A DNA stretch of 64,000 nt from the IMG/VR virus record IMGVR_UViG_3300046780_000922. One strand, written 5' to 3'. The translations under genes and the position numbers were made by a program. The notes under the pieces were generated by a model, which searched no databases, was not told the origin of the DNA, and saw only the letters and a program-made list of their open reading frames with translations. The stretch comes from an uncultured virus (IMG/VR IMGVR_UViG_3300046780_000922). Lineage: Duplodnaviria > Heunggongvirae > Uroviricota > Caudoviricetes. Positions 42,067 to 63,782 of this stretch are shown here, piece by piece (the first letter of the stretch is position 1; each line of letters starts with the position of its first letter).

Positions 42067-42300
42067 ATGGACCGCATCACCTGGACCACGGCCGCCGTGA
42101 ACATCGTTGGCCTGCTCGTGCTCGGCGCCGTGCTCATCTGGGCGCCCGAGAAGTCGCTCGAGGCCGTCATCTCGTTCGGCGCGCTCCTCGGCGGGAGCAC
42201 GCTCAAGGGCCTCTTTCACGGCCGGCAAGAAGACCCGGCCACGACCGTGGCGCGGCTGAGCACTGGGGCTGGAACCGGACCTACGCCGCCGGCCAGCTAG
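42067..42300 (+). CDS. small two-TM membrane protein (holin-like)
   Basis: Two hydrophobic helices; lone + strand gene with its own candidate promoter. Confidence 0.55.
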   Translation: MDRITWTTAAVNIVGLLVLGAVLIWAPEKSLEAVISFGALLGGSTLKGLFHGRQEDPATTVARLSTGAGTGPTPPAS

Positions 42301-42740
42301 CGATCGCGCACGCGGCCGGTATCGAGGATGTGGCGCAAGAGCGCGTCCTGTGTGTTCGAGAAGACCTTGATGGCGCCCTTGATCTCCTGAAGGACGCCGG
42401 TCGCCTCTTGGAGCATGTGGCCTTGGATCTCCATCTGCGCGACCACTGTGCGCAGGAGCTCGAACTGGCGTTTGTCGTTCTCGAAGTGCGCCTCGAGCGC
42501 GAGCTCGAACCGATCCATGTGCTGCGCCACCTCGCGCGCCAACATCTGCGCTGGCACTGACGGCTCGTGCGGATCGAGCGAGTGGTGACTCTTCGGGGCC
42601 GGAGGCGGCGCGAGCGAGCCCGTGGCGCCGTGGTGACGCACCGCGCGGTTGATGCGCGGTGCGAGCTCCTTCACCACGATGTAGACGAGGATGATCACGA
42701 CTGCGCCCCAGGGCCCCACCTTTTGAAAGAGATCGTCCAT
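42297..42740 (-). CDS. membrane protein with coiled coil
   Basis: N-terminal TM (GPWGAVVIILVYIVV). Confidence 0.6.
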   Translation of the reverse strand: MDDLFQKVGPWGAVVIILVYIVVKELAPRINRAVRHHGATGSLAPPPAPKSHHSLDPHEPSVPAQMLAREVAQHMDRFELALEAHFENDKRQFELLRTVVAQMEIQGHMLQEATGVLQEIKGAIKVFSNTQDALLRHILDTGRVRDR

Positions 42741-44104
42741 TACGCCACCCTCGTGATTCGAGAACCATCATCGTTCGCGGCCGGCGCCAGCGTATCGCCG
42801 ACGTTCGGGAGCGAGTTACTCGTGGTCGGTGCTTCACCGACTGCGTACTTGGCGATCCCCGCCGTGATGGCGGGCGCAGCTTCGTTCAAAAGCGCGTTTC
42901 CACCTCCGCGCCGGGCGACGATGCCGTAGCCCTGCACGGAGATAGAGATCGCAGTGGCCAGACCGGTGAGCTCGAACAAGCCGCCCGACTCCACCGTTAC
43001 GCCGATCCCATTGACGCCGGTTCCGACGAGCGTGCCTTTGCTGAAGGTGCACGCAGCGCCCCGCCAGACACGCAAGATCCCAGTCTGCTGGCCATTCTCC
43101 ATCTGGTAGCTACCGAATGGGTCGCCACCCACCACGAGCCGTGCGCCAGCGCCCTCGACGGTCACGTGGTCATCGCGCGAACGTCCGCCGAGCAGCTGCG
43201 TGTACGGATGGTTGCGCAAGTAGAGACCGTCCGTGGCGTTGACGTAACCGAAGAAGCCACCAGCGTCGGGCTCCTCTCGCGAGTAATAGGCGAGACCCGC
43301 GCCTAGGTACGCCTTCGATCCGCCGTTATATACGCGCTGCGGGCCGTAACCACCAAACGCAAAGACACCGGCCGGAGAGATCGACCCATCGACGCCAAGT
43401 AGGATCTGTGTTGCAGCGCCGTTCGTAGCGAGAATCAGTCCAGTGGTTGTCGACTTGCAGCGCCACCACGCCACGCGCCCATCGCAAACCACGGCCTTGT
43501 CGACAACGAAGTTTTCGAAGTTGAGCGTGGGCGCGAACGTGAACGCGGAGCCGAGTGATGTGGGCGTGCCGTACAAGACCGGAAAGATGCTGCCATCGAG
43601 GACGGTGACCGCATCTACGATCTCGTAGAGGTCGCCCTGCGCGACGGCCGCGGAGAAGTTACGCACCGGCGTGATGTCTGTCGCGCTGTTGTCCTTGATC
43701 AGCCGATAGTCACCAGCTGCCGCGCCAGTGAGCACGTGAATCCAGAAGTCGATGAACTGATCTACTACAAGGCCCGAGGACTTGATGGTGGTGACGGTCG
43801 AACCGACGAGTGCAGCCGTACTTGCGAGGATCGTGGTCTGGGGAACCGCGCGCACGTAGAGCTGGCCTGCACGGAAAAGCCGGGGCCGAAACGAGGGGCA
43901 CGCATAGGTGCCGGTCGTCAGCACTACGATCTGGATGTCAGTGTCGAAGCAGAGCGCTGCGGTACGCAGCTCCGCCTCGGTCAGCGTCTTGAGCGCAGTG
44001 GCTGGCGTGGCCCCGTCGTTCGTATCGAGGCCAGTCTGCCCATCGACGTAGACCGTTGCTGGCACGGCAGAACTGAAGACGGCGCTATTGATCGCGACCG
44101 TCAT
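42740..44104 (-). CDS. putative spike/receptor-binding protein (beta-helix-like)
   Basis: YVDGQTGLDTNDG...ALKTL N-terminal motif; Gly/Thr/Val-rich; shares a domain with 44522-46012. Confidence 0.6.
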   Translation of the reverse strand: MTVAINSAVFSSAVPATVYVDGQTGLDTNDGATPATALKTLTEAELRTAALCFDTDIQIVVLTTGTYACPSFRPRLFRAGQLYVRAVPQTTILASTAALVGSTVTTIKSSGLVVDQFIDFWIHVLTGAAAGDYRLIKDNSATDITPVRNFSAAVAQGDLYEIVDAVTVLDGSIFPVLYGTPTSLGSAFTFAPTLNFENFVVDKAVVCDGRVAWWRCKSTTTGLILATNGAATQILLGVDGSISPAGVFAFGGYGPQRVYNGGSKAYLGAGLAYYSREEPDAGGFFGYVNATDGLYLRNHPYTQLLGGRSRDDHVTVEGAGARLVVGGDPFGSYQMENGQQTGILRVWRGAACTFSKGTLVGTGVNGIGVTVESGGLFELTGLATAISISVQGYGIVARRGGGNALLNEAAPAITAGIAKYAVGEAPTTSNSLPNVGDTLAPAANDDGSRITRVA

Positions 44105-44111
44105 GATCGAA

Positions 44112-44522
44112 CTACTGGAACAAGATCGAGACCGAGATGTCGGCGGCCACCGTCGTCTGCTTGGCGTTCACCTGCACGGCCAGGTAGTCGCCGGCCAAGA
44201 GGTTCTGGAGCGCGGCCGACGCGGGTACAGTCGATGCTGTACCGAAGTTGCCGGCGCCACTTGCTACCGAGATGGTGCCAAGACTGGTCGGCGTGCCGCC
44301 GCGAACGCGGAAGACCTCGACGGTCGTCGTACCCGCGGCGCCGGCCACGCCCTCGCGCAAGGTCATCGTCTTGATGAAGCTGTCTACGTTGATCTCGCAG
44401 AAGCCACCGAAGGTAGAACCAGCAGTGAGCGTGCCGGCAACGCCGTTGACGATGGTCGAGATCACGCCGTTGAAGGCGAAGAGATACGTCGGGTGGTAGC
44501 CGCGGATTGCCGAGCCGGCCAT
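44112..44522 (-). CDS. beta-rich putative virion protein
   Basis: LLAGDYLAVQV...ADISVSI beta-sandwich pattern. Confidence 0.55.
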   Translation of the reverse strand: MAGSAIRGYHPTYLFAFNGVISTIVNGVAGTLTAGSTFGGFCEINVDSFIKTMTLREGVAGAAGTTTVEVFRVRGGTPTSLGTISVASGAGNFGTASTVPASAALQNLLAGDYLAVQVNAKQTTVAADISVSILFQ

Positions 44523-46012
44523 TAGGTGATCCTCACGATCAAAGATCCGTTGAGACCGTTGATGAGCGCCTGCTGCGCAGCACCGAGCGTAGCAGCTGCG
44601 ATCGTCGTCGTACCGCCATCGACCGAGAGGTCAGCGCCCGCAGGACCGAGTAGGCCCGTCACGCCTTCGAGGTAAGCCGCAGCACCCGAGCGAATGTCCA
44701 TACCCAGCGTCGTGCCCGCGCCTGAGGCGTTCGCGCTCGAACCGACCGTGAGCTTCACAGCACCCGTTGCACGCACGAGCACAGGTGCCGTCAAGAGCAC
44801 GCGGCGCAAGTACATCTCGAGGCTGGTCATGGTGTTGCCGCCGCTATTGACGTCGAGTGCAGCGTTGGTCCCCGCCGTGTTCGTCAACGCAACAGGCGGT
44901 GCGATCGCAGCGAGACTGCCGAGAATGGCCTGCGCGGTCTTAGCACCGAGACCGAACTGAAGCGGCGTCACGCCGTTCGTGATAGCTGACGAACCGCCGA
45001 CCCAGAGTAAGACCGAGCCGATGAACACCAACACCTGTACGTTGGTGGTGATGCCCGTGACGATGAACCCGCCCAGCGTCACCGTGGCGACCTGTAGGCC
45101 GGTCTTGCCGTAGAGGCCCCAACCGGACCAAGAGGTGTTGGACAGCGCGCCGTTGTAGGTCGTCGCGAGCGGCGCGACACAAGTACCCGCCGGCCACTGA
45201 CAGCCACAGATGATGGTGGCCCCGGCGCCGCCGATCGGAAGCTGCGATGTCGCGGTAGGACCGAACGCCTCACAACCGAAAAAGCCGACAACGCAACCAG
45301 AGAACATCCAGTTGACGAGCGCGGTTTGCCCGGCGAACTGGATGTTCGCGAAGATGAGCATCGGCGGAACAGCCGGTGACGGATTACCGAAGTACGAGAT
45401 GCCAGAATCGCCAATGCCGATGTCGAGCGCGGCGTTCTCGTTCGTAGTGATCAGGATCTTGACGACCGTCGCTGGCTCCAAGATGCGGATCGTGTCGTTG
45501 GCTGCGATGGCGGCCGTGAAGTTGCGCGAGGGGATGATGACGGTGTCGGTGTGATCGCGAATCGTGCGCAAGTCACCAGCGGCGGCACCCGTGAGCACCT
45601 GGATCGTCTTGCCACGGAACGTGTTGACACCGAGACCCGCAGGCGTGACAACCTGCACGTTACTCGAACCGGCCTGCGCGACCGTCGAACCCTGAAGAAC
45701 TGTGAAGCCGTCGCCACCCTGGCCTGCACCGTCTGCATAGAACACGACGTTGTCACGCAGGAGATGTGACTTGATCGTCTTGGTAAGCGAGTAGGTCGCT
45801 ACAGGTGCGGGCGCGATGTGCACCGTGAAGAGACCGGTGATCTCATCGAAGATGTTGAGGACATCGATCGCGTGGTCGATGGTCTTCCACGGAAGCGCGA
45901 TCGTGCCGGGATTGGAGTCGGACGCAGCCGCGGCATCGCCCGCGACGTAATAGTCGAGGTTACCACCGGTCTTGACGATCTGCCCCGCCGGTACTGCGCC
46001 CTCGTAACCCAT
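44522..46012 (-). CDS. putative spike/receptor-binding protein (beta-helix-like)
   Basis: YYVAGD...DSNPGT..LPWKTI; VLTGAAAGDLRTIRD...PSRNFTAA shared with 42740-44104. Confidence 0.6.
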   Translation of the reverse strand: MGYEGAVPAGQIVKTGGNLDYYVAGDAAAASDSNPGTIALPWKTIDHAIDVLNIFDEITGLFTVHIAPAPVATYSLTKTIKSHLLRDNVVFYADGAGQGGDGFTVLQGSTVAQAGSSNVQVVTPAGLGVNTFRGKTIQVLTGAAAGDLRTIRDHTDTVIIPSRNFTAAIAANDTIRILEPATVVKILITTNENAALDIGIGDSGISYFGNPSPAVPPMLIFANIQFAGQTALVNWMFSGCVVGFFGCEAFGPTATSQLPIGGAGATIICGCQWPAGTCVAPLATTYNGALSNTSWSGWGLYGKTGLQVATVTLGGFIVTGITTNVQVLVFIGSVLLWVGGSSAITNGVTPLQFGLGAKTAQAILGSLAAIAPPVALTNTAGTNAALDVNSGGNTMTSLEMYLRRVLLTAPVLVRATGAVKLTVGSSANASGAGTTLGMDIRSGAAAYLEGVTGLLGPAGADLSVDGGTTTIAAATLGAAQQALINGLNGSLIVRIT

Positions 46013-46014: not shown

Positions 46015-46689
46015 CTACGGGACCGCCTTGTAGAGCACTCCGAAGAGCGCATTCGCGGTGTCGAGCGTGAGCGTGTCGGGCGTGGTCGAGATCGCGACCG
46101 TGATGCCCTTACCGCAGATGAAGACGAACTCGTCGAAGACGTCCCAACACTCGCCGACTGAGGCGCCTGCGTTCGGGAGCTCCGTGCGCCAGGTGGGCAC
46201 GGCGCCATTGACCACGGCCACATCCGAATCGAAGACCATGAGCGTGCGGTCCGCCGCGACACCGGCCTTGACGAGCATGGTGATCCGGCCGACGCGCAAC
46301 GCCTTGGCGCCGGCCACGATGGAGTGCTGAATCTCGAACGCCGAAGAGACGTACCTGTCCGCGACGATCGGCTCCGAATCGGCCGTGATGGTGCCAGTGA
46401 TGACAACAGGATCGATGATCCTACGAATCCAGATGCGCCCGAGCTGGTCGACCAAGACGCGCTGGTCTTGACCGCTATCGACCGAGACAGAGCCGGTCGT
46501 GCCGTCGGAGCTGGCGCGGCCGAGCGCGTTCTCGTAAGGGGCGACGAGCGTGCCGCGCTCGGGACGGGCCTGGCCTTGCTGATCGACGAAGGCCGAGACC
46601 ACGCGCGGCGTGTCCTCTAGCGACGCAGTACGCCCGCGAAGCTGAGAGTCCGCGTCGGACTCGAACGGGATGTCGCCGTTGCTACTCAT
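46015..46689 (-). CDS. putative virion protein
   Basis: Beta-rich C-terminal half (GITVAISTT). Confidence 0.55.
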   Translation of the reverse strand: MSSNGDIPFESDADSQLRGRTASLEDTPRVVSAFVDQQGQARPERGTLVAPYENALGRASSDGTTGSVSVDSGQDQRVLVDQLGRIWIRRIIDPVVITGTITADSEPIVADRYVSSAFEIQHSIVAGAKALRVGRITMLVKAGVAADRTLMVFDSDVAVVNGAVPTWRTELPNAGASVGECWDVFDEFVFICGKGITVAISTTPDTLTLDTANALFGVLYKAVP

Positions 46690-46924
46690 GATTGGGCCCC
46701 GCGGTAGCGAGCTTCCAGAGCTGCTGCATGGTGGCGAAGAGACGAGGTGAGGCCGTCGAGAGGCGCTTACGCGCCGCCGAGACGATGAGCGAGCGGCCGG
46801 CGAGCGCGAGCTCGTTCACACGAGGCAGGCAGTCCGCGCACACGTGAACCGTGTCTGCGGCCAAGCAGTCGAGCGCTTGGCCGCAGATCGCGCAGTGCAC
46901 AGTGCCTCGTGCATCGCTCGTCAT
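46682..46924 (-). CDS. small zinc-finger protein
   Basis: CAICG...CADC. Confidence 0.5.
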   Translation of the reverse strand: MTSDARGTVHCAICGQALDCLAADTVHVCADCLPRVNELALAGRSLIVSAARKRLSTASPRLFATMQQLWKLATAGPNHE

Positions 46925-47109
46925 ACGCCCGAGCGGCGCACGAGGCGCGCGGCTTCCTTCTTGGCTGCGCAGGGAGTGCAGCCCTTGCGCTTCTTGGGCG
47001 GGGGCTTCCCGCCACCTGGCGGCGTGGCCGGCGCCTGCGCGAGGCCTTGCAGACCGGCCTCACCGACTGCGGCACCGTGAAAGAGAATCTGGGCCAGGAG
47101 CTTGTTCAT
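46921..47109 (-). CDS. small basic protein
   Basis: KKRKGCTPCAAKK; coupled ORF. Confidence 0.5.
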   Translation of the reverse strand: MNKLLAQILFHGAAVGEAGLQGLAQAPATPPGGGKPPPKKRKGCTPCAAKKEAARLVRRSGV

Positions 47110-47483
47110 CGTCGCTTCCTCCTACGGAGGAAAAGATAGCCCGTCGAGGCCGTGGAGAGGAGCGCGGTGGCGATGAACGCCGCACGCTCGGAGCTCGTGA
47201 GCTGGTAGCCGGCCACGGCCTGCCCGAACCCCCAGAGAGCGGTCGAGACGTTCGAGCCGATGAGCGCGCCCATGCCGTCGCCCGCCGCCAGGTAGCCCGT
47301 GAGCGCCCCGCCCACGTTGACCGCGAGCAGCGCCACCCCGTGGAGCGCCCACCGCCTGGCGGCCTCGCTGTAGACCGCAGGGGGCAGGGTGACGTCGCCG
47401 AGGCCTCGGCCGGCGAGCTGGCCCTGGAGCCGGCGGCCAGTCATCGCGTGGTACGGGAGGTAGATTTCCTCAATCCGTGCCAC
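47106..47483 (-). CDS. multi-TM membrane protein with RGLGD motif
   Basis: AAGGAG RBS, GTG start; TMs; RRRKRR tail. Confidence 0.6.
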   Translation of the reverse strand: MARIEEIYLPYHAMTGRRLQGQLAGRGLGDVTLPPAVYSEAARRWALHGVALLAVNVGGALTGYLAAGDGMGALIGSNVSTALWGFGQAVAGYQLTSSERAAFIATALLSTASTGYLFLRRRKRR

Positions 47484-47946
47484 GGCCGCTCTCCTTGCTG
47501 GAGCCCTGCGTGGCGAGCCAGAAGCAGCCGAAAAGGCCGACCAGCGAGACGACGAGGACGCTGCCGCCGAGCGTGCGGTGCTCTTGCCGGCGCATGAGGA
47601 GCGAGGCGTCGAGGAGGCCCGCCAGACCGCCCGTGAGGAGCGCTGCGGTGAAGGCACCGCGACCGGTACCGGCGGCCACATAGCCGACGATGGCGCCGCC
47701 GGCCGTGGCCCCGAAGATGTTCCCGAGCGTGCTCGGGAGCGGCGTCGGAGAGGCCTCGACAGGGAGCACGGGCAAGACGCCCATCGTGGCCATGGCGCTC
47801 GCGGCGGAGATCCTCCACCAGGGCGGGTCGAGCTGCTGCGGAGCCGACTGCGCCGCCATCGTGGTCTTGAGGACCGCGGCGTCAGCGTCCGAGACGACCT
47901 CCGATGCCTGCACGGAGCCATCAGCGGGCATCACGACGTTAGGCAT
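47470..47946 (-). CDS. multi-TM membrane protein
   Basis: Three Gly-rich hydrophobic helices. Confidence 0.6.
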   Translation of the reverse strand: MPNVVMPADGSVQASEVVSDADAAVLKTTMAAQSAPQQLDPPWWRISAASAMATMGVLPVLPVEASPTPLPSTLGNIFGATAGGAIVGYVAAGTGRGAFTAALLTGGLAGLLDASLLMRRQEHRTLGGSVLVVSLVGLFGCFWLATQGSSKESGRGTD

Positions 47947-48796
47947 CGTCGAGCTCCAGGTTGTAGTCGTCGCGCGCGTCGAGGAGCTGCGAACCGCTCA
48001 CCTCGCGGTAGCCTTCGAGACGCTTCTTCTCCGAGGCCTTGGCGAGGTAGATACCGACGCCGAGGACGACACCGAACGTGGCGAGGCCGCCGAGGAACCA
48101 CCAGATGGCGTTGCTGCTGCTCGGGTCGGGCCGCTGCGCGAGCGCGGACTGGGGTGTGGGGACGAGCTGCTCGACGTAGCCGTAACAGCTGGTGGTCTCG
48201 AGTTGCTGGCGCTGGCGATCCTGGATGCACGCCTGAAGAGCGGCCGTACGAGCGTCGTAGAGCGCGCGGAGCTGGCGGGTCTGCTCCTGGAGCACGTAGA
48301 GATCGACGAGGCCATCGAAGCTCTCGTACATCTTGGTCCCGAGGTAGACCATCAAACCGAGCGCGATCAAGATCGCGACGACGATGCCGGCGATACCCCA
48401 TGGCCCGATTGCGTTGGTGCTCGGATTGGTCGGAGGCGGCGTCTGATAGATCGGGTCCGAGAGCGCGGGCGCGAGCTGCGTCGTCGTCGGGAGCTGCGCC
48501 AAGACCTGCGGCTGATCGGCGAAGATGTTGCGGACGAACGCCAAGAGACGTGCCTGTGCCGCCTTCGTGTTCGCGCGTAGCTGGTCGAAAGCGGCCTGGT
48601 CCGCCGACGTGAGCAGCCCGGCCTGATTCAGGTCGAGCAGATCAGTACCGATGCCGCGAATGTCGATCTCGACCTGCGCCAGGGTGTGGAGCGCCTCCGA
48701 CGTGGAGCGAACCGCCGGCAGATCGCTGATCTGGGCCTGCACCAGCTGAGTGGCGTAAGCCTGAGCGCGGGCGATGAGATCGTCGATCGTGGCCAT
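47939..48796 (-). CDS. two-TM putative virion membrane protein
   Basis: Start MATIDDLI; internal and C-terminal TMs. Confidence 0.65.
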   Translation of the reverse strand: MATIDDLIARAQAYATQLVQAQISDLPAVRSTSEALHTLAQVEIDIRGIGTDLLDLNQAGLLTSADQAAFDQLRANTKAAQARLLAFVRNIFADQPQVLAQLPTTTQLAPALSDPIYQTPPPTNPSTNAIGPWGIAGIVVAILIALGLMVYLGTKMYESFDGLVDLYVLQEQTRQLRALYDARTAALQACIQDRQRQQLETTSCYGYVEQLVPTPQSALAQRPDPSSSNAIWWFLGGLATFGVVLGVGIYLAKASEKKRLEGYREVSGSQLLDARDDYNLELDDA

Positions 48797-48797: not shown

Positions 48798-49166
48798 TTA
48801 CTGACTCGGCGTAGGTGCCCACTCCACGATGAGCACGAGGATTTCGTAGCCCTCCGCGGCACAGGCCACGATGCACTGGCCCGGCGCGATGTGGAACTTG
48901 TTCGAGATCGGGTAGAAGGGCGGGAGCTTGTAGTTCCGGTTGTGCCCGTAGTAGCGAGGAACGAGCGAGGACTGGTTGATGACGACCCGGGAAGCGCCGC
49001 GACCGATGGTGATGCCCGCGGTGAGATCGAACGTGTCGAGCGACGCCTGTACGCCCACGGGCGCCTGCACCTGGACCGAACGCCAGTGATCGGGAACTGC
49101 GTCGAGGACGACCCGGATATTCTGGTCGACCGTGGCACGAACCATCTTGGCGCCGTAGGGCTGCAT
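48798..49166 (-). CDS. small beta-rich protein (penton/jelly-roll-like candidate)
   Basis: FHIAPGQCIVA...ILVLIVEW strand pattern. Confidence 0.5.
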   Translation of the reverse strand: MQPYGAKMVRATVDQNIRVVLDAVPDHWRSVQVQAPVGVQASLDTFDLTAGITIGRGASRVVINQSSLVPRYYGHNRNYKLPPFYPISNKFHIAPGQCIVACAAEGYEILVLIVEWAPTPSQ

Positions 49167-49221
49167 CGGATTTCTCAGTCGAGCTCCCAGGTAACCGCCA
49201 TCACTATGTCCTGCGGCTGCA

Positions 49222-50214
49222 TCACCGCACCATGATCGTCCCGGCGAGCGCGAGAGCGAGGACCGGCGCGCCTTGGTTGGCCACGATGAGCTGCGTCTGA
49301 GCCGAGATGCCCTCGCCCGGCTCCATGTAGATGGGGCTGTCGAGCTCGTGGACGACGACGCGCCCGCTCATCGAGCCGAGCTGCTGCGCGAGCATCAGGT
49401 TACTCGGTACGCCCGAGGTCGCGTGCTTGAACCACTCGGAGGTGGTTCCGTTGCCGACCTGGTTGACCTGCACGCGGAGCAGGCTGATGTCGCCCTGCGG
49501 ATTGTTCGTGAGACTGTCCGCGCCGAGCGTGGCGGACATGTCGGTCATCACGATCGGCTCGTCACCGTCGTTACGGTAGAGGCTCGGGTCGAGCGTGTGG
49601 ATGATGGTGTCGTTCAGGTCGAGCGAGGCGCTCTTCCAGTAGGGCCGCAAGCTGTCGAGGCCGAAGCCGGCGAACGCGACCTCGGCCGTGCGCACGCCAT
49701 CACCCGAGACGGCCAAGAGCTGGACCTGGACGCGCATCGTGTCCCGCGCGGTGAGGAGCCAGGGATCGAAGAAGCGATGCGCGGCCTGGCCGAACGAGAT
49801 GGAGTTCGGAGCGGCCACGACCTTGTTGAGCCAGAGCGGAGCTGCGGCGAAGACACGGCCGGCCATGTACTCCTGACCGTGGAAGACGAGCTTGACGCCG
49901 ATCCGTTGGATCATGCGCTCGTCGGTGGCAACCGCGGCTGCGTTGAGCACGCGCGTGCTCAAGAGTACGTGTGTGACCTTGACCGGAAAGGCCTCGCCGT
50001 TCTTGAAGGCGTCCGGGTTCGAGAAGCCCACCGTCTGGTCGTCCGGGACGGTGATCTCGTCGAAGTACCAGCGAGGCTCGGTGAAGACGCCGTTACAGAG
50101 GTTCTCCTTGGCCGTGATGACGAGCCGGCTCAGATCGCTCTGCGCCTTCGCATCATCGATCGCGTCCTGAATGACCGGAGAGATCCTATCGGCCGGGTTT
50201 TGCTCATTGGCCAT
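49222..50214 (-). CDS. putative double jelly-roll-like capsid protein
   Basis: Internal two-fold repeat: FKNGEAFPVKVTHV / YRNDGDEPIVMTDM and LTARDTMRVQV...VAFAGF / MEPGEGISAQT...LALAGT. Confidence 0.5.
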   Translation of the reverse strand: MANEQNPADRISPVIQDAIDDAKAQSDLSRLVITAKENLCNGVFTEPRWYFDEITVPDDQTVGFSNPDAFKNGEAFPVKVTHVLLSTRVLNAAAVATDERMIQRIGVKLVFHGQEYMAGRVFAAAPLWLNKVVAAPNSISFGQAAHRFFDPWLLTARDTMRVQVQLLAVSGDGVRTAEVAFAGFGLDSLRPYWKSASLDLNDTIIHTLDPSLYRNDGDEPIVMTDMSATLGADSLTNNPQGDISLLRVQVNQVGNGTTSEWFKHATSGVPSNLMLAQQLGSMSGRVVVHELDSPIYMEPGEGISAQTQLIVANQGAPVLALALAGTIMVR

Positions 50215-50218
50215 GGTG

Positions 50219-51322: not shown

Positions 51323-51337
51323 GGATCCTCAGAAACG

Positions 51338-51375
51338 CTACGCCCCTCAAGACACGGTGGCCTTGAGGGGCGTAG
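51338..51375 (-). terminator. stem-loop after the three paralogous capsid-like genes
   Basis: CTACGCCCCTCAAG / CTTGAGGGGCGTAG 14-bp inverted repeat; short T run on the - strand. Confidence 0.65.
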
Positions 51376-51405
51376 GCAAGGCCTTGGGACCGAGACCGAA
51401 GACGA

Positions 51406-55990: not shown

Positions 55991-56001
55991 CGACGTACTC
56001 C

Positions 56002-56127
56002 TCAGCGGCGGTGCTTGCGCCGACGATGACGCGCACGGCCCTTCGGACAGCACAGAAGCGCGCCACCCTTGACCCGCTTGCAGTGCTGGCCCTTCTTGGT
56101 GCTCCGAGAAAACTTGCAGCGTGCCAT
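56002..56127 (-). CDS. small basic Cys-rich protein, paralog of 55793-55990
   Basis: CKFSRSTKKGQHCKRVKGGALLCCPK. Confidence 0.65.
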   Translation of the reverse strand: MARCKFSRSTKKGQHCKRVKGGALLCCPKGRARHRRRKHRR

Positions 56128-57141: not shown

Positions 57142-59091
57142 TTATCTGGTCGCCTTGTACAGGAGCAGACCGCCGAGACCGAGTCCGAGCGCACCCAGAA
57201 CCACCCAACCCGTGTAGTTGGCGGGCGGCTGAATCGGTGGTCCGGGCGTGAGCCCCGGACCGAACGAGGGGAGTGAACCAGGCGCGGCCGGCGTCGCCGT
57301 CGCTGCAACGTCGTGCCAGACCGAGACGGGGAGACCGGCCGAAGCGGCGGCCTGAATCGCCGTGGCGCGAGCCACGACCGCCTGCGTGTTCCCGTCGCTC
57401 GGATCGAAGTCACACGCAGCGTCAGTCGAGCTCTTGATCATGCGCATGACGGGCGGAGGGATGCAGGCGGCCTCCCAACCGAACGTGCCCGCAGCGAGCG
57501 CACCCGAGATCAACTTGGCCAGCGCTTCGACCAGCGCACCCACCGCAGCGATGATGGCGCCGACGACCGTACCGACGACGGGAATGGCTGCCGCGATCCC
57601 TGCGGCGAGCCCGAAGATCGGCGCGATGACTTCCGAGGCGTCCTGAAAGGCCTTCTCACTGAGCGCGTTGCGGAGCGCGGCGAGCGAAGCAGACGCGAGG
57701 TTGTGATACTGCTCGGGGATGATCGCGATCGCGTCGAGGTACGCCTGAAAGCCGTTCGCAACCATCGTCTCGAACGACGTGTTCACAACATCTTGCGCCC
57801 AAGCGATGCAGAGCTTGATCTGGAGCGCAGCCGAGGCCCACCAGAACTTCGTGGACACCGTGGCCATGGACGAGCGCACAGCCACACCGGAACCGCTGCG
57901 CGTCATCCGGGCCCGCGCGTAGAAGTTGCCTCGCTGAGGCACGAAGTCCGACGCGCCGAGCGTGGTCTGGTACCAGAGCTGCATCCGGCGCGAGATCGAA
58001 CTGTCGGCCGCCGAGACAACGACCCAGCTCGCCGGCCACGGAGCTCCGGTCGTAACGGCCTGTCCCATCGTGGCCATCTGCGCCGCGACATCCCGCGAAT
58101 CACCCATGCCGCGAGCCGGCGGGAGCGGATCGAAATCACCCCAGACCGTGTCCGTGTTGCAGGTGGTCGTGCCCGGGTAGGCGACGGCGGTCGCGGCCTT
58201 CTCCGGCGAACAGGCGAGCGTGCTCTTACGCGAGACCGGGACTGCGATCGCGCGATTGCTGCCGGGCCCGAGCGCGGGGAGACCACGAGCCGTGTCATCC
58301 AGAACGAACGGACCGACGGCCGGCTCGAGCAAGGACATGTTGACCGCCGTGCACGGCTCGAAGTCGGCCGCCACGCGCGGGAAGACAAAGGCGGCCTTGT
58401 AGTCGACGGCCATCACGCTCGGCTTGAAGAGATTGACGAGCAGCTGGTCTTTGAGCGGATAGAAGTCGTCGGCATTGACCCGCGAGGGGGCGGCCACACC
58501 GCGGAGATCGATCGAGGCGTGGTCCGCGAGCACCTGCTGGAGCACGGCCTGCGCGGCCGGCATGTCGTTGACGTCCGGCAAGTAGCCGGGATGGATGTTC
58601 GTGGCCCAGCGCGACATCGTCACGAGCTGCATGACCTGCCGGCACCAGTCGACCCACGCCGAGGCGTAACGGGGCTGGTTGTTGTCGACCGTCAAGCCCT
58701 GCTGGCCACCGGGCGTGGCCGCGAGCAGGTGCGCGAGCTGCGTCTGGCACCACAGATAGCGATCGGCCTGAAACATGACCTGGAGATAGGCCTGCGCGTC
58801 ACACGCGCGATCCACCTGGATGAATCGCCAGTTGCACATCGTGCCGCCTTCACCGGCCTGATTGCACGTCGTGAGATCGGGGTTACCAGTCGCAGCGCAG
58901 CGGGTGCCGTCGACCGGCCGGGCCTGCGCTGCGTACGCGCCATCACGCGCCCACATCGTGCTCGGCGCAACGCCGCTGATGTGCTCGAGGACGTCACTAC
59001 CGAGGTGAGTCGCGACGAACGACGACAGGCGCCCGGCCAGCTCTTGGGCCGTGGGCATGTAGAACGTCGTCTGCGGGCTCGTACCAGTCAC
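57142..59091 (-). CDS. large membrane-anchored putative virion protein (possible DNA delivery)
   Basis: 649 aa; internal hydrophobic hairpin AAIPVVGTVVGAII; C-terminal TM. Confidence 0.7.
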   Translation of the reverse strand: MTGTSPQTTFYMPTAQELAGRLSSFVATHLGSDVLEHISGVAPSTMWARDGAYAAQARPVDGTRCAATGNPDLTTCNQAGEGGTMCNWRFIQVDRACDAQAYLQVMFQADRYLWCQTQLAHLLAATPGGQQGLTVDNNQPRYASAWVDWCRQVMQLVTMSRWATNIHPGYLPDVNDMPAAQAVLQQVLADHASIDLRGVAAPSRVNADDFYPLKDQLLVNLFKPSVMAVDYKAAFVFPRVAADFEPCTAVNMSLLEPAVGPFVLDDTARGLPALGPGSNRAIAVPVSRKSTLACSPEKAATAVAYPGTTTCNTDTVWGDFDPLPPARGMGDSRDVAAQMATMGQAVTTGAPWPASWVVVSAADSSISRRMQLWYQTTLGASDFVPQRGNFYARARMTRSGSGVAVRSSMATVSTKFWWASAALQIKLCIAWAQDVVNTSFETMVANGFQAYLDAIAIIPEQYHNLASASLAALRNALSEKAFQDASEVIAPIFGLAAGIAAAIPVVGTVVGAIIAAVGALVEALAKLISGALAAGTFGWEAACIPPPVMRMIKSSTDAACDFDPSDGNTQAVVARATAIQAAASAGLPVSVWHDVAATATPAAPGSLPSFGPGLTPGPPIQPPANYTGWVVLGALGLGLGGLLLYKATR

Positions 59092-59095: not shown

Positions 59096-59317
59096 CTACC
59101 TACGCGCGGGCCGGTAGAAGTAGATCGAGGTCAGAAGACCGCCGATCAGCAGGCCCCCAACTGCACCCACGGCCATGCCGACCCAGAGATCAGTGAGCGG
59201 ACCGATGGCCGAACCCGGCTGCGTCTGACCGAGACGACGACCGAGACCAGACGCACGAAGCGCCTGATGCTCGAGCGCGTGCGCGATCAAAATCTGCTGA
59301 GGGACCTGCTGCGGCAT
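59096..59317 (-). CDS. small membrane protein with SGLG motif
   Basis: GGAGG RBS; C-terminal TM. Confidence 0.6.
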   Translation of the reverse strand: MPQQVPQQILIAHALEHQALRASGLGRRLGQTQPGSAIGPLTDLWVGMAVGAVGGLLIGGLLTSIYFYRPARR

Positions 59318-59325: not shown

Positions 59326-59880
59326 CTACTTCCGCAGTGCGAAGAAGACGCCGACCGCACCGAGCACGCCGATCGCCGCCAGCCCGCCGTAGAACACGCC
59401 GGGGCTAAGGCCGAGGATCATGTGCTGCGCCTGCATCTGCGCCTGCGCGGCCATCATCTGGGCCTGCGACTGTTGCTGCATCGTGAGCTGCTGGATCTGC
59501 GCCAGCGCTGCGGCCGTGGACTGCGCGGCCGGGTCGGACGAGATGACCTGCCCGGCAGCCTGCGCACGCGCGGCCGTGCATGCCGCGTTGAACGCGGTCG
59601 TGGCGGCCTGCACGCCCGTGCCGGCCTGCTGCCAGCCCTGGTCGTGCTGAGCCGCGAGCCCAGCACCGATACCGGCCGTCAGCGTCGAGATGAGCGCCGA
59701 TGCCGGATCGTTACACATCTCGGCCGCAGTGAGACCGAGATGTCCGCGCATCGAGTTGATCGACGTACCGCGCTGGCTGCGCCCCATGCCGGCAAGCACG
59801 AGCTCACCCAAGACGCGACCGGGCGGAGGCCGATACGCGCCAGCCACCGGCAGCCCCGAGAGAGTCATCACACGTGCCAT
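59326..59880 (-). CDS. C-terminally anchored protein with LAGMG motif
   Basis: AAGGAG RBS; Gln/Ala-rich; C-terminal TM + RK. Confidence 0.65.
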   Translation of the reverse strand: MARVMTLSGLPVAGAYRPPPGRVLGELVLAGMGRSQRGTSINSMRGHLGLTAAEMCNDPASALISTLTAGIGAGLAAQHDQGWQQAGTGVQAATTAFNAACTAARAQAAGQVISSDPAAQSTAAALAQIQQLTMQQQSQAQMMAAQAQMQAQHMILGLSPGVFYGGLAAIGVLGAVGVFFALRK

Positions 59881-59892: not shown

Positions 59893-60483
59893 TTACCGAC
59901 GACGATGCTTGCGCCCGTGCTGGTAGTACCAGTAGAGCCCGCCTGCGGTGGCCACCGAGCCCACACCGAGCAGACCCCAGATCCACCAGTCGATGCCGAG
60001 CCAGCCCGTGGTTTGCGCGGACGGCATGAGCACCATGGACGGCGTGGGATGGAACGGCGCGAGCGCGCTCGCGCCCGGACCGGTCGAGATTGCGGCCGAC
60101 GCTGCCGCACGCTGAGCCGGCGTCGTGGCCCGCCCGGGCGAAGTCGCGGCGGCCTGCGCACCCGCGTACACGGCAGCTGCACGCTGTGCCGGTGCGGGAG
60201 TCTGCGGGGAGTAGGTCCCGTCGTACATCCGCGCGAAGCTGTAGAGCACCTGCTGGATCGGCGCCGGCATGTCGACCTGCGTGGCTCGCCGAACCGGGCT
60301 CATGAGGAGCCCGGCCGCGCCGATCAGATCGGGCGACTGCATCGCCACCCACCCGTCGAACGCGTTCTGCGTGTTCGGCCCCCAGAGCCCATCCAGCGTC
60401 CCAGGCGCGCTGATGTGGTTGGGGTCCTGCAAATGGGCGACCGTCAGCGCCTTCTGCACGTCCAAGGTGGAGATCATGGTCAT
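59893..60483 (-). CDS. peptidoglycan-binding-domain protein with C-terminal TM
   Basis: VQKAL...PGTLDGLWGPNTQNA (PG_binding_1-like); C-terminal TM + RKHRRR. Confidence 0.7.
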   Translation of the reverse strand: MTMISTLDVQKALTVAHLQDPNHISAPGTLDGLWGPNTQNAFDGWVAMQSPDLIGAAGLLMSPVRRATQVDMPAPIQQVLYSFARMYDGTYSPQTPAPAQRAAAVYAGAQAAATSPGRATTPAQRAAASAAISTGPGASALAPFHPTPSMVLMPSAQTTGWLGIDWWIWGLLGVGSVATAGGLYWYYQHGRKHRRR

Positions 60484-60495: not shown

Positions 60496-60804
60496 TCACT
60501 TGCAGGCGACGGTGATGCGCTTGCCCGTCTTGCTCTTGCGATGCGCTTCCTTCGGCAAGCGCGCGGCCACGCCCACCTCACAGAACGCATGATGACCGCG
60601 GATGCGACAGCCCTTGCGGATCTTGCCCTTCTTGCCGCCCGACTGGACGATCGCGCAGGCCTTGGGCACCTGCTTCTTGAGCGAGGCGCCGCTCGAGACG
60701 TGCGTCCACGTCTTGCCCTTGGCGCAAGACGGGCTCTTGCACGAGCCACTGATTCCTGCCCGGCGCATGACCGAACGAGCCTTCCGAGAATGACGCTTCG
60801 CCAT
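60496..60804 (-). CDS. small basic Cys-rich protein
   Basis: Start MAKRHSRK; very Lys/Arg-rich; GAGGA RBS. Confidence 0.6.
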   Translation of the reverse strand: MAKRHSRKARSVMRRAGISGSCKSPSCAKGKTWTHVSSGASLKKQVPKACAIVQSGGKKGKIRKGCRIRGHHAFCEVGVAARLPKEAHRKSKTGKRITVACK

Positions 60805-61098: not shown

Positions 61099-61656
61099 TC
61101 AACGACCCTTGCGCTTTCCGAACCCTTGCGCGATCGCCACGGGCACGGTGATGACCGGAAAGAGCCCGCCCATGAGCGCCCACCAGAGCGCCCAGCCGAC
61201 GGAGTTGTTGCGCTTGAAGCCGTGATAGGCGCCGAGGCCAGTACCGATCACGGAGGCCGAACCCCAAGCCGCTGCCGCGACCTTCTCTTGCCACGAGAGC
61301 GCCTTGGTGACGTCCGAGACCGGACCGAGCGAGGAGGGCGTCTGCAAAAGCTGCGAGACAGATGTAGGCCCACTTGCCGCATCATCGCCGAGCCCGATGA
61401 GGCCCGCGAGGCGCCCGAGCTGCGTGACGGGATTGAACTGCGCGAGCGGATAGGTCGGTGCACCCCCGCAGTCCTCGTAAGTGCCCTGCTCGCCGCAACC
61501 CTTCGCAGTCGCCCGCAAGAGGTTCTGCTGCACCTGTGGCGTCACCCCGAACTGTGGGAAGCGGTACTGAAAGACGTACTGCGGATGCGGGGCAAAGGGG
61601 CCCTTGCCGCCGGACTGGATCATCGGACGACCCGAGTATGTAGGATAGAGCGGCAT
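61099..61656 (-). CDS. membrane protein with LIGLGD motif
   Basis: AYHGFKRNNSVGWALWWALMGGLFPV; basic tail. Confidence 0.65.
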   Translation of the reverse strand: MPLYPTYSGRPMIQSGGKGPFAPHPQYVFQYRFPQFGVTPQVQQNLLRATAKGCGEQGTYEDCGGAPTYPLAQFNPVTQLGRLAGLIGLGDDAASGPTSVSQLLQTPSSLGPVSDVTKALSWQEKVAAAAWGSASVIGTGLGAYHGFKRNNSVGWALWWALMGGLFPVITVPVAIAQGFGKRKGR

Positions 61657-61874: not shown

Positions 61875-62486
61875 TCACTTCTTCGGGAGCATGTACGCCG
61901 CATAGACGGCGTCCTGTGCACGGATCTCATCGATCGCAGAGAAGACCTGCGGGTACTCCCACGCCTGCCGCCAGCCGAGGGGATAAGACGGCTCGGGCGC
62001 GAAGTGATCGCCGAACGAGGGCAAGAGGCCCGGGGTGTACGGCGTGCTCGGATAGGGGAGGTTGCGGTAGAGCGGCGTGTACTTGCTCGGGTCGTCGAAG
62101 ACGCGCTGACGCATGATTTCGTCTGACAGCTCGCGACCGAGCTCGCTCATCTCCTGCCACTTGGGCATCTCCACCGTGCCGTGGATCTGACGCAGCGTGG
62201 CGCCCGAGGCGTCGAACGCCTGCGCGTAGGAGTCCGCCGCGCCGCTCCACTCCTGCCACGTCCAGCGGTCCATCTTCTTCCACTGCTGCTGCGCCATGTT
62301 GATCGGCAGCATGTACGCCAGCGGCAGATTCGCGGGGTCCTTCATCGCCTGGAGCGCGTTGACGACCGGCGCCTGCTCCACCGGATAGAGATGGCTACGC
62401 AACGCGTCGATCGGAGCGCGAGACATCACGGTCGGCAGGATGTACCTGCCGCCCGGTCCCCGCCCAAAGCTGCGACCGAAAGTCAC
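61875..62486 (-). CDS. hypothetical Pro/Tyr-rich protein
   Basis: Start uncertain (GTG 62486). Confidence 0.55.
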   Translation of the reverse strand: MTFGRSFGRGPGGRYILPTVMSRAPIDALRSHLYPVEQAPVVNALQAMKDPANLPLAYMLPINMAQQQWKKMDRWTWQEWSGAADSYAQAFDASGATLRQIHGTVEMPKWQEMSELGRELSDEIMRQRVFDDPSKYTPLYRNLPYPSTPYTPGLLPSFGDHFAPEPSYPLGWRQAWEYPQVFSAIDEIRAQDAVYAAYMLPKK

Positions 62487-62491: not shown

Positions 62492-62845
62492 TCAGCCCTT
62501 CTTCTTGGCGAGCTTCTTCGCAGCCGTGAGCGCACGAGCACGAGTCCGGTACGCCTGAAAGCCACCGACCGTGCTGATCTTCCCACCGCAGGCCATCCGC
62601 ACCGTATACGCCCGCGCATCGTTCGAGCGCGGGCGCTTCTCCGAGGTCACGAAGAACGAACAGCGACAGGTCTTGCCCGGGATGACCTTGTCGATCACGC
62701 GGCTCCCGAAGAACCGCATCGAGCCCTTGTCGAAAAAGTGCGTGCTCACCGCGCTCTTCGAGGCATTCGCCTTGATCTGCGAGATCGACGTCACGCACTT
62801 GCGTGCACGACGCCGACGACGCGACCCACCGCCAGAGAGCGCCAT
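62492..62845 (-). CDS. basic phage protein
   Basis: LSGGGSRRRRR; HFFDKGSMRFFGSR...FFVTSE...YTVR pattern. Confidence 0.65.
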   Translation of the reverse strand: MALSGGGSRRRRRARKCVTSISQIKANASKSAVSTHFFDKGSMRFFGSRVIDKVIPGKTCRCSFFVTSEKRPRSNDARAYTVRMACGGKISTVGGFQAYRTRARALTAAKKLAKKKG

Positions 62846-62847
62846 GG

Positions 62848-63093
62848 CTACCGAGCCGCGCGAGCTGCCCGGCCGCGCTTGTAGATGAGCGCCGACTTGA
62901 CGCGATGGCCGGCCTTGCCGCTCACCGCCCGCATCAAGAAGAGATGTGCCGCCTTGGACGTCGCGAAGCACTTCGTGTGCGCCGAGCTCTTCTTGGTGCC
63001 CTTGCGGACGGTCACGCAAATCGGGCCACGCCCGTGCGCCTTCTTCCGACCGAGACCGCTGGTGTGACGACGCCTGCGCTTCTTGTGAGCCAT
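62848..63093 (-). CDS. small basic protein with SGLG motif
   Basis: AAGGAG RBS; MAHKKRRRRHTSGLGRKK. Confidence 0.65.
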   Translation of the reverse strand: MAHKKRRRRHTSGLGRKKAHGRGPICVTVRKGTKKSSAHTKCFATSKAAHLFLMRAVSGKAGHRVKSALIYKRGRAARAAR

Positions 63094-63161
63094 CGCGGAG
63101 TCTCCTTGGGCACTGGGCCCTCGAAGACTTCCTACCAGGCACGTTTCGAAGCGTTCAGGGA

Positions 63162-63782
63162 TTATTGGTCGAACATCGGGAAGTCGCGGAACGCGGCCGG
63201 GTTCGGAACGTGCCAGCCAGGAGGCTTCCCGGGAACCGTCATGTCGAGCGGGATGAACGTCTGCGGGTTGTCCTTGGGGCAACCTACGATCGGGAAGACA
63301 TGCTCCCACTGCTCGCCCTGCGTCGAGATCACGCGAGCGAAGCACTGCGTGAAGCCGAGCGCGCGAGCGATCGCACAAACGGCCACGGTCTGATCGTCGC
63401 AGTCGCCCGAACCGGAGAGAAGCGACACCTTGAGCGTGGCGAACGTGTCCGCCGAATCGGGATCGTAGACATAGCGCATGTTCTCTACGAGGAACGTCCA
63501 GATCGCGCCGAGCTCGCAAGCGTCATCCTGCTGCACGCAGACTTCCATCGGCGGCGCATGGAAGCGCTTGCCCCACGCTTCGACGACCGGAAGACGGCGG
63601 CCTGTGCGGGGATCCTCCACGTAATCGAACGTCCCCGAGACGATCTTGCGTGCGAGCATGATCGTCTCGGGGTCCTGGAGACTCTCGTCGACCTGGCGCT
63701 TCACCAGCGCCATGTGGCCGTCGAGGTCATCGGAGAGGAAGAAGCGCGCCTGAGTGACCTGGCCGCGGGCGGGTCTGGGCAT
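63162..63782 (-). CDS. transglutaminase-like (papain-fold) cysteine protease
   Basis: MRYVYDP, GDCDD (Cys), WEHVF (His), IPLDMT (Asp). Confidence 0.82.
   Translation of the reverse strand: MPRPARGQVTQARFFLSDDLDGHMALVKRQVDESLQDPETIMLARKIVSGTFDYVEDPRTGRRLPVVEAWGKRFHAPPMEVCVQQDDACELGAIWTFLVENMRYVYDPDSADTFATLKVSLLSGSGDCDDQTVAVCAIARALGFTQCFARVISTQGEQWEHVFPIVGCPKDNPQTFIPLDMTVPGKPPGWHVPNPAAFRDFPMFDQ

Follow-up and report, generated by a model that had tools for sequence, protein, structure and literature searches.

This study concerns a 64,000-nucleotide stretch of DNA, referred to throughout as the window, from the uncultured virus record IMGVR_UViG_3300046780_000922, and in particular a block of co-oriented genes at positions 42297-63782 on its minus strand. 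The block is most likely the virion-building module of a temperate, non-tailed bacterial double-stranded DNA (dsDNA) virus whose circular genomes, at about 70-87 kb, exceed those of known viruses with this architecture several-fold. We put at roughly 60% the probability that the window represents a new lineage of such viruses, with a capsid assembled from several single-jelly-roll proteins and probably an internal membrane. An initial annotation of the same DNA had proposed a tailless, membrane-containing jelly-roll virus on an unusually large genome, and this central idea survives the tests it set, as far as these were run. Two predicted jelly-roll folds and the lack of tailed-phage families stand behind it, and the virion and its membrane are still deduced from genes.

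The window represents 64 kb of its own 73.3-kb contig, and negative results given for it cover those 64 kb. High G+C content (64% along the entire window) makes raw lists of open reading frames (ORFs) noisy, and genes were therefore called, and their starts refined, from position-specific G+C at third codon positions (GC3). So treated, the window reads as one phage-like element in two arms, of which the one on the plus strand (1-26.7 kb) carries the genes for replication and recombination and the minus-strand arm opens with a tyrosine integrase and closes with the block. The initial annotation had described about 21 kb of co-oriented genes, and per-frame GC3 agrees, resolving 32 closely packed minus-strand genes; three extra small ones (46921-47109, 56002-56127 and 59096-59317) come in addition, and the block is one operon of about 21 kb with some 32-35 genes. 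Thirty block ORFs, alternative frames included, matched no Pfam and no PHROGs family at E<0.001, and under E 0.01 they gave just four sub-threshold matches, none of them structural. A viral nature is supported by the phage-type replication genes, the integrase, an M23 peptidase or amidase, and genomes that close on overlaps of 123-127 bp.

Relatives and conservation of the element

Pattern scans recovered four related loci in species genomes, nine in IMG/VR and 82 confirmed metagenome-contig matches, the best 80 of which were kept. Among sequencing runs, one soil-metagenome run contains the window and is probably where it came from, two others share 5% of its words, and no RNA run is listed with it, none of which speaks to habitat or expression. 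The near-complete relative C28 (G002:C28; 68.4 kb) is circularly permuted with respect to the window and has in common with it the replication module, the integrase, the core block, several membrane proteins and a transglutaminase-like gene. It also reads across the junction that lies outside the window, where only a DUF3987-type helicase gene stands between the two arms. Three IMG/VR records are circularly closed (G004, 76,963 bp; G005, 80,634 bp; G006, 86,806 bp), with closing overlaps of 127, 127 and 123 bp, respectively, flagged by IMG/VR as direct terminal repeats. These closed relatives share the PolA replication module, the integrase and the block with the window, and their sizes of 77-87 kb bear out the earlier expectation of a genome of more than 64 kb carrying tailed-phage-like replication genes and an integrase.

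Six elements were compared (the window, C28, G004, G005, G006 and G007). Nine families, corresponding to eleven window genes, occur in all six: w1059, w1884, SNF2, the Sak4-like protein, PolA, a pair and a trio of paralogs described below, and the membrane protein at 53612-54172. By gene-call clustering, DUF3987, the transglutaminase-like gene, the integrase, the nuclease and the single-stranded DNA-binding protein (SSB) are found in five of six.

Beyond these elements, an eight-gene stretch of the block, comprising two membrane proteins, the trio, the pair and a small protein of 122-135 amino acids (aa), lies in G001, a 4.74-Mb chromosome from a Gemmatimonadota metagenome-assembled genome. 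That stretch is accompanied by neither the replication module nor the transglutaminase-like gene. The trio family occurs in 2 of 401 sampled Gemmatimonadota genomes, G001 included; for other relatives the bin labels are Myxococcales, Phycisphaerae and Chitinophagia, which may reflect binning. A fourth, distant trio-family match (G001:C1:3715366-3715893, E 1.4e-12) lies far from the main block of G001.

Two families of jelly-roll proteins at the centre of the block

The core of the block consists of the following genes.

53612-54172, minus strand: core membrane protein with two predicted transmembrane helices, directly upstream of the capsid-like genes; in six of six elements and in G001
52833-53552, minus strand: trio paralog A, 239 aa, predicted single jelly-roll, candidate capsid protein
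52096-52812, minus strand: trio paralog B, 238 aa, 32% identical to A (E 3e-22)
51406-52083, minus strand: trio paralog C, 225 aa, 29% identical to A (E 4e-18)
50219-51322, minus strand: pair member, 367 aa, distant paralog of the 330-aa protein; in six of six elements
49222-50214, minus strand: pair member, 330 aa, modelled as N-terminal helices and a jelly-roll with a second, apparently inserted, beta-sandwich
48798-49166, minus strand: small conserved protein, 122 aa, following the pair; by its position a candidate minor capsid or vertex protein

The beta-rich paralogs of the initial annotation, placed there at 48.8-53.6 kb, are indeed a trio and a pair of paralogs, with a corrected span of 49222-53552. 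Trio members are 29-32% identical to one another (E 4e-18 to 3e-22), and the two pair members align over 285 columns in hhalign (probability 98.6%, E 1e-15); no sequence relation between pair and trio was detected. Of all block proteins these five are the most conserved (33-53% identity to relatives, most of the others reaching 26-35%), and they have the highest GC3 in the window (0.91). The small gene that follows the pair is syntenic and clusters among C28, G004, G005 and G007, and the 135-aa gene of G001 matches both C28 and window positions 48819-49274 by tblastn.

Paralog A has 71 homologs in a collection of 5.8 billion proteins, all unnamed and none with a Pfam domain, and 223 cluster representatives at E<=0.001 (138 at E<=1e-10) in a library of 1.84 billion. 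When the trio proteins of related loci were sorted by best match they fell into three groups of 73, 51 and 44 distinct sequences; 45 of the 51 paralog B orthologs and all 44 of paralog C were aligned. Since the trio sorts in this way across loci, the triplication probably predates the radiation of the family. Exactly three paralogs were present in all 33 loci with at least 4.8 kb beyond the first, and the pair was resolved as two genes in 30 of these, the other three giving one or three intervals that we read as artefacts of merging or divergence. With a recurrence of 33 in 33, the gene pattern is not chance.

Two of the five proteins were modelled, paralog A and the 330-aa protein, the 367-aa protein being known as a paralog only. 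The AlphaFold2 model of paralog A (68-sequence alignment; pLDDT 83.5, pTM 0.79) is nearly all beta, and its weak Foldseek list consists nearly entirely of jelly-rolls. That of the 330-aa protein (37 sequences; pLDDT 85.5, pTM 0.80) has N-terminal helices followed by about 13 strands. Its top Foldseek matches in PDB and BFVD are birnavirus VP2 (E ~2e-7, probability up to 1.0), and structure-search scores place it near the capsids of PBCV-1 (8.4) and EhV-201 (8.2), then HHIV-2 (8.0), Faustovirus (7.9), the STIV turret (7.7), SPV1 (7.1), PRD1 P3 (6.9) and ASFV p72 (6.8), with PHM (7.9) and a GOLD domain (7.5) interleaved among them. Both families come out of the modelling as jelly-roll proteins, with viral shell proteins prevailing at the head of the lists, and the fold is predicted for both proteins examined in 49.2-53.6 kb, within the region for which the initial annotation had asked for it. 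These scores fall in the range flagged as unspecific, and homology to any named capsid family is therefore not shown.

Nearly all structure alignments of the 330-aa model cover 90-125 residues and yet span its residues 43-330, and one sandwich of carbohydrate-binding module (CBM) type aligns with residues 136-255 alone. We take the model to be an outer jelly-roll to which both chain ends contribute, a further beta-sandwich being inserted mid-chain, a layout of base plus tower rather than a tandem double jelly-roll. A weak search for fused (double jelly-roll) forms of the trio among longer proteins found none, and none of the best 150 library matches of the trio family exceeds 269 aa. Prediction of a trio complex (A1+A6+A7, partner C) gave a score of 0.23 against a mark of 0.32, which speaks neither for nor against binding. 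When paralog A and the 367-aa protein were searched by tblastn against 50,697 named phage records, there was no match.

Tailed-phage hallmarks and packaging ATPases

The initial annotation saw no terminase, portal, HK97 capsid or tail signature in the block, and profile searches concur: none of these families was found at E<0.001 in the 30 block ORFs, and the other 42 kb of the window have no terminase, portal, capsid or tail family in Pfam or PHROGs. Looking beyond the window gave the same answer. There is no terminase, portal, capsid, connector or tail family in C28 (83 proteins with Pfam, 77 with PHROGs), and no terminase, portal, capsid or tail family among 116 proteins of the closed G004 (Pfam) or 114 of the closed G005 (PHROGs). 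Six-frame searches of five whole IMG/VR records returned 0/5 for Terminase_6C (PF17289), Terminase_6N (PF03237) and TerL_ATPase (PF03354), and likewise 0/5 for Phage_portal (PF04860) and Phage_capsid (PF05065); the same searches were positive in control genomes. Portal and HK97 folds can escape sequence profiles. Seventy-two large ORFs (at least 330 aa) flanking the block in 30 further loci yielded no tailed-phage family, the recurrent families among them being Transglut_core (3), DUF3987 (2) and Beta_helix (1).

As to the packaging motor, canonical Walker A motifs in the real genes of the window occur in the RecD-like and Sak4-like proteins only, in keeping with the earlier remark that no packaging ATPase is visible there. 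The accompanying suggestion that an FtsK/A32-like ATPase might lie outside the window found no support: Pox_A32 (PF04665) and FtsK_SpoIIIE (PF01580) gave 0/5 at E<=0.1 in the five IMG/VR records, three of them closed, and no FtsK/A32 family appeared in proteome scans of the window, C28, G004 and G005. Two candidates were considered and dropped. The DUF3987 protein adjoining the block matches primase-helicase families and was set aside as a packaging ATPase, and w1884 was rejected as a hidden terminase, portal or ATPase on its sequence, which has no NTPase motif.

A very divergent tailed phage, in which terminase, portal and HK97 capsid all escape profiles, the jelly-rolls are decoration, cement or fibre proteins and a 649-aa membrane protein is tape-measure-like, seems to us very improbable. 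It would account for the tailed-phage type of the replication module, and for the cement proteins of KHP40 and Pam1, a phage baseplate protein and tip-attachment protein J among the structural matches. It could also appeal to G001, where a terminase-bearing block (L016 3333-3406, 3458-18304; Terminase_6C with 611-aa and 338-aa neighbours and an integrase adjoining tRNA-Pro) lies about 15 kb from the core copy, beyond 11 kb of metabolic genes. However, none of the proteins of that block has a homolog in the window or C28, and we therefore take it for an independent prophage nearby; a search for a second att repeat that would mark its borders gave nothing, although one could lie in a stretch of Ns. 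Terminase large subunits, moreover, are normally caught by Pfam or PHROGs, and none was in the window, C28, G004, G005 or the five records. The P-loop proteins of the closed genomes are all of helicase or recombination type (DUF3987, Sak4-like and, in one genome, RecD), and G004 has no unassigned soluble protein of at least 400 aa fit for a terminase or portal, its five proteins of that size by gene calls being a 910-aa membrane protein, DUF3987, the w1884 family, SNF2 and PolA.

Membrane, basic and spike proteins

The core genes are surrounded by a set of predicted membrane, basic and spike-like proteins, listed here from the start of the operon.

63162-63782, minus strand: Transglut_core protein, first gene of the block (Pfam E 4.6e-6; the 31st ORF scanned)
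62848-63093, minus strand: small basic core-like protein, 81 aa, 31% Lys+Arg, with an N-terminal basic run then SGLG
61875-62429, minus strand: acidic protein, 184 aa, no family match (GC3-supported ORF, refined start)
61099-61623, minus strand: predicted tail-anchored membrane protein, C-terminal transmembrane helix and basic tail; tblastn matches in C28, G004, G005 and G007, the C-terminal part being the portion conserved in relatives
60496-60804, minus strand: small basic Cys-motif protein, 102 aa, 27% Lys+Arg (composition)
59893-60483, 59326-59811 and 59096-59317, minus strand: three small predicted membrane proteins (hydropathy and basic tails), the hydrophobic stretch of the first lying below the hydropathy threshold used
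57142-59091, minus strand: largest block protein, 649 aa, three predicted transmembrane helices (hydropathy); C-terminal third conserved in C28
56672-57103 and 56130-56672, minus strand: two predicted tail-anchored membrane proteins with N-terminal RR-x-x-G-L-G (hydropathy, GC3)
55793-56127, minus strand: two tiny Cys-motif proteins in tandem, both very basic (KKGxxCKRVKGGxLLCC), which may condense DNA (composition)
55055-55741 and 54519-55058, minus strand: two predicted tail-anchored membrane proteins (hydropathy, GC3), the former with a homolog in G001 and C28
54238-54555, minus strand: small protein with basic C-terminal part (GC3)
47939-48796, minus strand: predicted membrane protein, coiled coil and two transmembrane helices (hydropathy, GC3)
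47470-47946, minus strand: predicted membrane protein (hydropathy, GC3); homolog in G001
47106-47483, minus strand: predicted membrane protein with RGLG (hydropathy, GC3)
46921-47109, minus strand: basic 62-aa protein, seen by eye only in sequence inspection
46682-46900, minus strand: Cys-rich, zinc-ribbon-like small protein (sequence inspection)
46015-46689, minus strand: spike cassette protein, 224 aa
44522-46012, minus strand: spike cassette protein, 496 aa, beta-helix-like (Atlas structural look-alikes)
44112-44522, minus strand: spike cassette protein, 136 aa
42740-44104, minus strand: spike cassette protein, 454 aa, with an attachment-like domain common to the 496-aa protein
42297-42740, minus strand: last block gene, 147 aa, N-terminal transmembrane helix (hydropathy) and helical C-terminal part, no family match

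Membrane calls rest on Kyte-Doolittle hydropathy, which flagged 13 block proteins, close to the dozen first proposed; most have a single C-terminal helix followed by an Arg/Lys tail. A protein-atlas search with the 649-aa membrane protein returned nothing usable. The basic core-like proteins of the initial annotation are likewise there, with at least four small window proteins of 26-31% Lys+Arg (the tandem pair at 55793-56127, 60496-60804, 62848-63093 and, picked out by eye, 46921-47109). The blocks of relatives also hold small very basic proteins, three in C28, four in G004 and three each in G006 and G007, reaching 51% Lys+Arg; none was flagged in the G005 block or in G001 at the thresholds used. 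Counterparts of the Cys-motif pair occur in the virion blocks of C28, G004, G006 and G007, and a KKGC-x3-KGG-x3-C-like motif is common to many basic proteins of the window, C28, G004 and G007. By composition and motif, these small Cys-motif proteins are candidate DNA condensers.

A second motif, an N-terminal basic stretch, in many cases RR, that leads into G-[LI]-G, recurs on many membrane and some basic proteins between 47106 and 62848 of the window, and also in C28, G005, G006 and G007; G004 has no motif-bearing protein even by a looser pattern. The motif was first noticed in the window, and its exact form RG[LI]G was tested on the other five elements only, where 6 of 48 tail-anchored, basic-tailed proteins carry it, as compared with 10 of 479 other proteins (Fisher p 0.0017; a count of 6 was reached in 0 of 2000 shuffles). 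The motif may serve as a signal for processing or for assembly. We rejected a twin-arginine or Sec signal reading of RR-x-x-G-L-G, there being no hydrophobic core after the motif. The transglutaminase-like (papain-fold) protein is present in six of six elements by alignment, and five of six by gene-call clustering, with Cys128, His161 and Asp180 invariant in all six aligned sequences, and is a candidate maturation protease or cross-linker. Taken together, the triad and the shared motif suggest the idea of a processing or cross-linking step.

Spike-like proteins had also been proposed, and the evidence favours them. The low-confidence Atlas model of the 44522-46012 protein has right-handed beta-helix look-alikes at TM-scores of 0.55-0.59, and this protein shares an 82-residue domain with the product of 42740-44104 (45% identity, E 3e-14). 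All four spike cassette proteins have homologs adjoining the core block in G006, and at locus L043 a protein downstream of the core matches Pfam Beta_helix.

The topology of the anchored proteins raises an alternative that we consider unlikely, namely a non-tailed virion that is enveloped or pleomorphic, with the tail-anchored proteins in an envelope and the jelly-rolls serving as nucleocapsid, matrix or spike. A C-terminal anchor with a basic tail, repeated on many proteins, is the classical topology of envelope proteins, the lack of an encoded packaging motor fits the wrapping of condensed nucleoprotein, small basic proteins are abundant, and the structural matches are too unspecific to fix an architecture. 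Yet the block encodes a conserved set of five jelly-roll proteins, best matched by the shell proteins of icosahedral viruses, sequence inspection made no signal peptides evident on the anchored proteins, and we know of no pleomorphic or enveloped prokaryotic virus with such a jelly-roll set.

Core blocks in cellular surroundings and points against the virion reading

The G001 copy of the block is flanked by cellular-type genes, and at locus L005 ordinary cellular genes adjoin the block. One could therefore suppose, as we think quite unlikely, that there is no virion module at all and that the jelly-rolls have a role in envelope structure, in a fibre or as accessories of an integrative or plasmid-like element, which would either form no particle itself or rely on a helper. 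Such a supposition draws on these two core blocks, which lie among cellular-type genes without the replication module, on the failure to find a packaging enzyme of any kind, and on the use of jelly-rolls in fibres and lectins, with Ena spore appendages, FlhE and CBMs among the matches. It sits badly with a block that, on the closed genomes of 77-87 kb, is always accompanied by replication genes of phage type, an integrase and peptidoglycan hydrolases of lysis type, and Pfam scans of the window, C28 and G004 showed no conjugation or plasmid partition families. The beta-helix spike-like and protamine-like proteins, too, are typical virion items, and 20 kb of overlapping, strongly conserved genes in one orientation is how a morphogenesis operon usually looks.

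Several findings weigh against the reading that we prefer, that of a non-tailed virus with a jelly-roll shell. No particle, lipid or protein has been observed and the lineage is known from genes alone. The structural matches are of middling strength only: Foldseek with the paralog A model gave nothing at E<=0.001, the birnavirus VP2 matches of the 330-aa model have TM-scores of only ~0.2, and profile searches of PDB sequences with the trio and 330-aa families gave nothing under E 0.07. Phage cement, tail-fibre and tip-attachment proteins are also among the structure matches, and the fold alone therefore does not say 'capsid'. The terminase-bearing block near the G001 core, described above, belongs here as well. 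As regards coverage, 9.3 kb of the window's own contig lie outside the sequence read, and three large G005 ORFs were missed by the GC3-minus-GC2 gene caller and the PHROGs scan, these being covered by the six-frame searches. Finally, an 80-kb genome without any packaging NTPase, for which we found no precedent, is the strangest feature of the lineage; the known jelly-roll viruses without an ATPase (Odin group, FLiP) have small genomes according to the consulted part of one survey (PMC5894146).

Comparison with known viruses

The closest working analogues are the single-jelly-roll viruses with two major capsid proteins (Helvetiavirae; P23-77, IN93, SSIP-1 and the SH1 group) and Sulfolobus polyhedral virus 1 (SPV1; Portogloboviridae). 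Fold class, several shell-protein candidates and many predicted membrane proteins are common to these and the present lineage, which differs from both in genome size, in its set of three plus two paralogs, in PolA-type replication and in the lack of sequence similarity. P23-77-type phages infect bacteria, genomes of the P23-77/SH1 group are about 17-44 kb, and an A32/FtsK-type packaging ATPase, a defining feature of the group, is reported for it; no A32-type ATPase was found here in the five records or the proteome scans, and there are three plus two paralogs here against one plus one there. For P23-77, IN93 and SSIP-1, and for SH1, HHIV-2 and HCIV-1, the consulted portion of one account describes a small single-beta-barrel protein, a larger protein with an upper domain, and an internal membrane (PMC6356626). 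A packaging ATPase is also reported for the wider group around P23-77/SH1 in excerpts of a survey (PMC5894146).

In SPV1, according to the passages available, a shell of two different single-jelly-roll proteins (VP4 and VP10) overlies an inner membrane, and a nucleocapsid protein condenses the circular dsDNA to form a core; the searched text makes no mention of an ATPase (PMC8459092). Candidate DNA-condensing proteins in place of a motor are what the present lineage would share with SPV1. There are also differences: the host of SPV1 is an archaeal hyperthermophile, its genome measures ~20 kb where those here have 70-87 kb, it has two jelly-roll proteins against five, and its replication genes are others. 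There is no sequence similarity, and homology is not shown.

Birnavirus VP2 consists of a helical base and a shell jelly-roll that carries a projecting jelly-roll, and its likeness to the 330-aa model is one of fold architecture only. In a comparison with PRD1, PM2 and Bam35 (Tectiliviricetes), a single jelly-roll aligns; the other beta-sandwich of the 330-aa protein appears inserted and not tandem, and there is PolA here against protein-primed PolB or rolling circle there. The FtsK-HerA/A32 ATPase of double jelly-roll viruses (Bamfordvirae) was not found here, nor was the terminase of Caudoviricetes in the window, C28, G004, G005 or the five IMG/VR records. For the prokaryotic double jelly-roll viruses covered in the part consulted of one survey, genomes measure ~7-18 kb, and a packaging ATPase of FtsK type is nearly always encoded (PMC5894146). 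Because of its size, paralog set, lack of an A32-type ATPase, PolA and lack of sequence similarity, we have not filed the lineage in any named family. No description of such a lineage was found in the literature searched, in which coverage of subscription journals is incomplete.

A proposed working of the virion

If the block does build a non-tailed virion, single-jelly-roll proteins of several kinds would form the shell, namely the A/B/C trio together with the 330/367-aa pair, which would bear towers, a scheme that may be likened to those of P23-77, SH1-type viruses and SPV1, each of which uses two such proteins. A lipid membrane would lie beneath the shell, studded with about 13 small tail-anchored proteins whose basic C-terminal tails may face the DNA, and the beta-helix proteins with their common attachment domain could act as receptor-binding or depolymerase spikes. 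Since neither a terminase nor an FtsK/A32 motor was found, the genome is probably condensed and enclosed during assembly. The protamine-like Cys-motif proteins might do the condensing, with the genome enclosed as in the SPV1 core and not pumped into a shell made beforehand. Virion proteins may be processed or cross-linked, perhaps at RR-x-x-G-L-G, by the Cys-His-Asp enzyme of transglutaminase fold. In adenovirus, the maturation protease recognises the consensus (M/I/L)-X-G-X-G.

Carried further, these ideas give a combined picture that we hold tentatively and think rather unlikely to be right in all its parts, that of an undescribed lineage of bacterial dsDNA viruses, at family level or well above, in which four features would occur together. 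Large icosahedral, membrane-lined shells would be built from five distinct single-jelly-roll proteins, of which the trio could form pseudo-hexameric capsomers and the pair would bear the towers. Genomes of 70-87 kb would be replicated by a PolA module of tailed-phage type. The DNA would be enclosed without a motor, condensed by protamine-like Cys-knuckle proteins, and a transglutaminase-fold protease would cut membrane and core proteins at RR-x-x-G-L-G, in what might parallel adenovirus maturation. Genomes of 70-87 kb joined to five jelly-roll proteins, with no packaging enzyme recognised, would in themselves stretch several-fold the size range of a non-tailed, membrane-containing virion type thought small until now, give bacterial viruses their own example of a nucleoprotein core without a motor, a design known to date from the archaeal SPV1, and add a data point on the relation of single- to double-jelly-roll capsids. 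Virus discovery based on markers (terminase, HK97 or double jelly-roll capsid, A32 ATPase) is blind to such genomes, and none of the family's structural proteins has a Pfam or PHROGs family. The family is nonetheless not rare in sequence data, with 223 representative clusters, 82 metagenome matches and nine IMG/VR loci.

Other genes of the element

Outside the block the following genes were assigned, by family scans unless stated otherwise.

1884-3761: core gene w1884, 625 aa, with a basic N-terminus, a small conserved GGG-containing domain, and Pro/Gln-rich and coiled-coil stretches
4329-6077, plus strand: SNF2 helicase
6354-7433 and 8152-9411, plus strand: RecD2-like helicase, two genes
9726-11081, plus strand: PD-(D/E)XK nuclease
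11911-12684, plus strand: Sak4-like AAA_24 protein
12730-13269, plus strand: DUF669 SSB
14165-17146, plus strand: UDG-PolA fusion (uracil-DNA-glycosylase-superfamily domain N-terminal to DNA polymerase A)
17143-17607, plus strand: NUDIX
27584-28504, minus strand: tyrosine integrase
31131-32120, minus strand: topoisomerase family, 329 aa (PHROG 6247, phrog_6247, E 2.8e-85; no Pfam family)

The w1884 protein, present in six of six elements, could on its sequence features be a scaffold-like or internal protein, and the UDG-PolA fusion is likewise kept in all six; the PolA-family ORF of G005 measures 1424 aa with a longest-ORF gene caller. A glycosyltransferase-like and a sigma-like gene complete the plus-strand arm, and on the minus-strand arm DUF932, a UDP-GlcNAc 2-epimerase and an M23 peptidase lie between the topoisomerase family and the block. 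The RecD2-like helicase is split, with the OB and HHH domains in one gene and the ATPase core in the other, and two small genes stand between the halves (7437-7775, of a D5-like regulator family, and 7772-8155, DUF3310); in C28 the halves adjoin each other. Three Ala/Gly/Thr-rich ORFs of G005 (L116 ~11990-19075; G005 72-79 kb), of 1232, 423 and 721 codons from stop to stop, are fibre-like by composition and have no homologs in the other elements. Two cellular-type genes of the window, a di-haem cytochrome c peroxidase/MauG-like gene (22959-24347) and the UDP-GlcNAc 2-epimerase (37485-38642), each have a homolog in G006.

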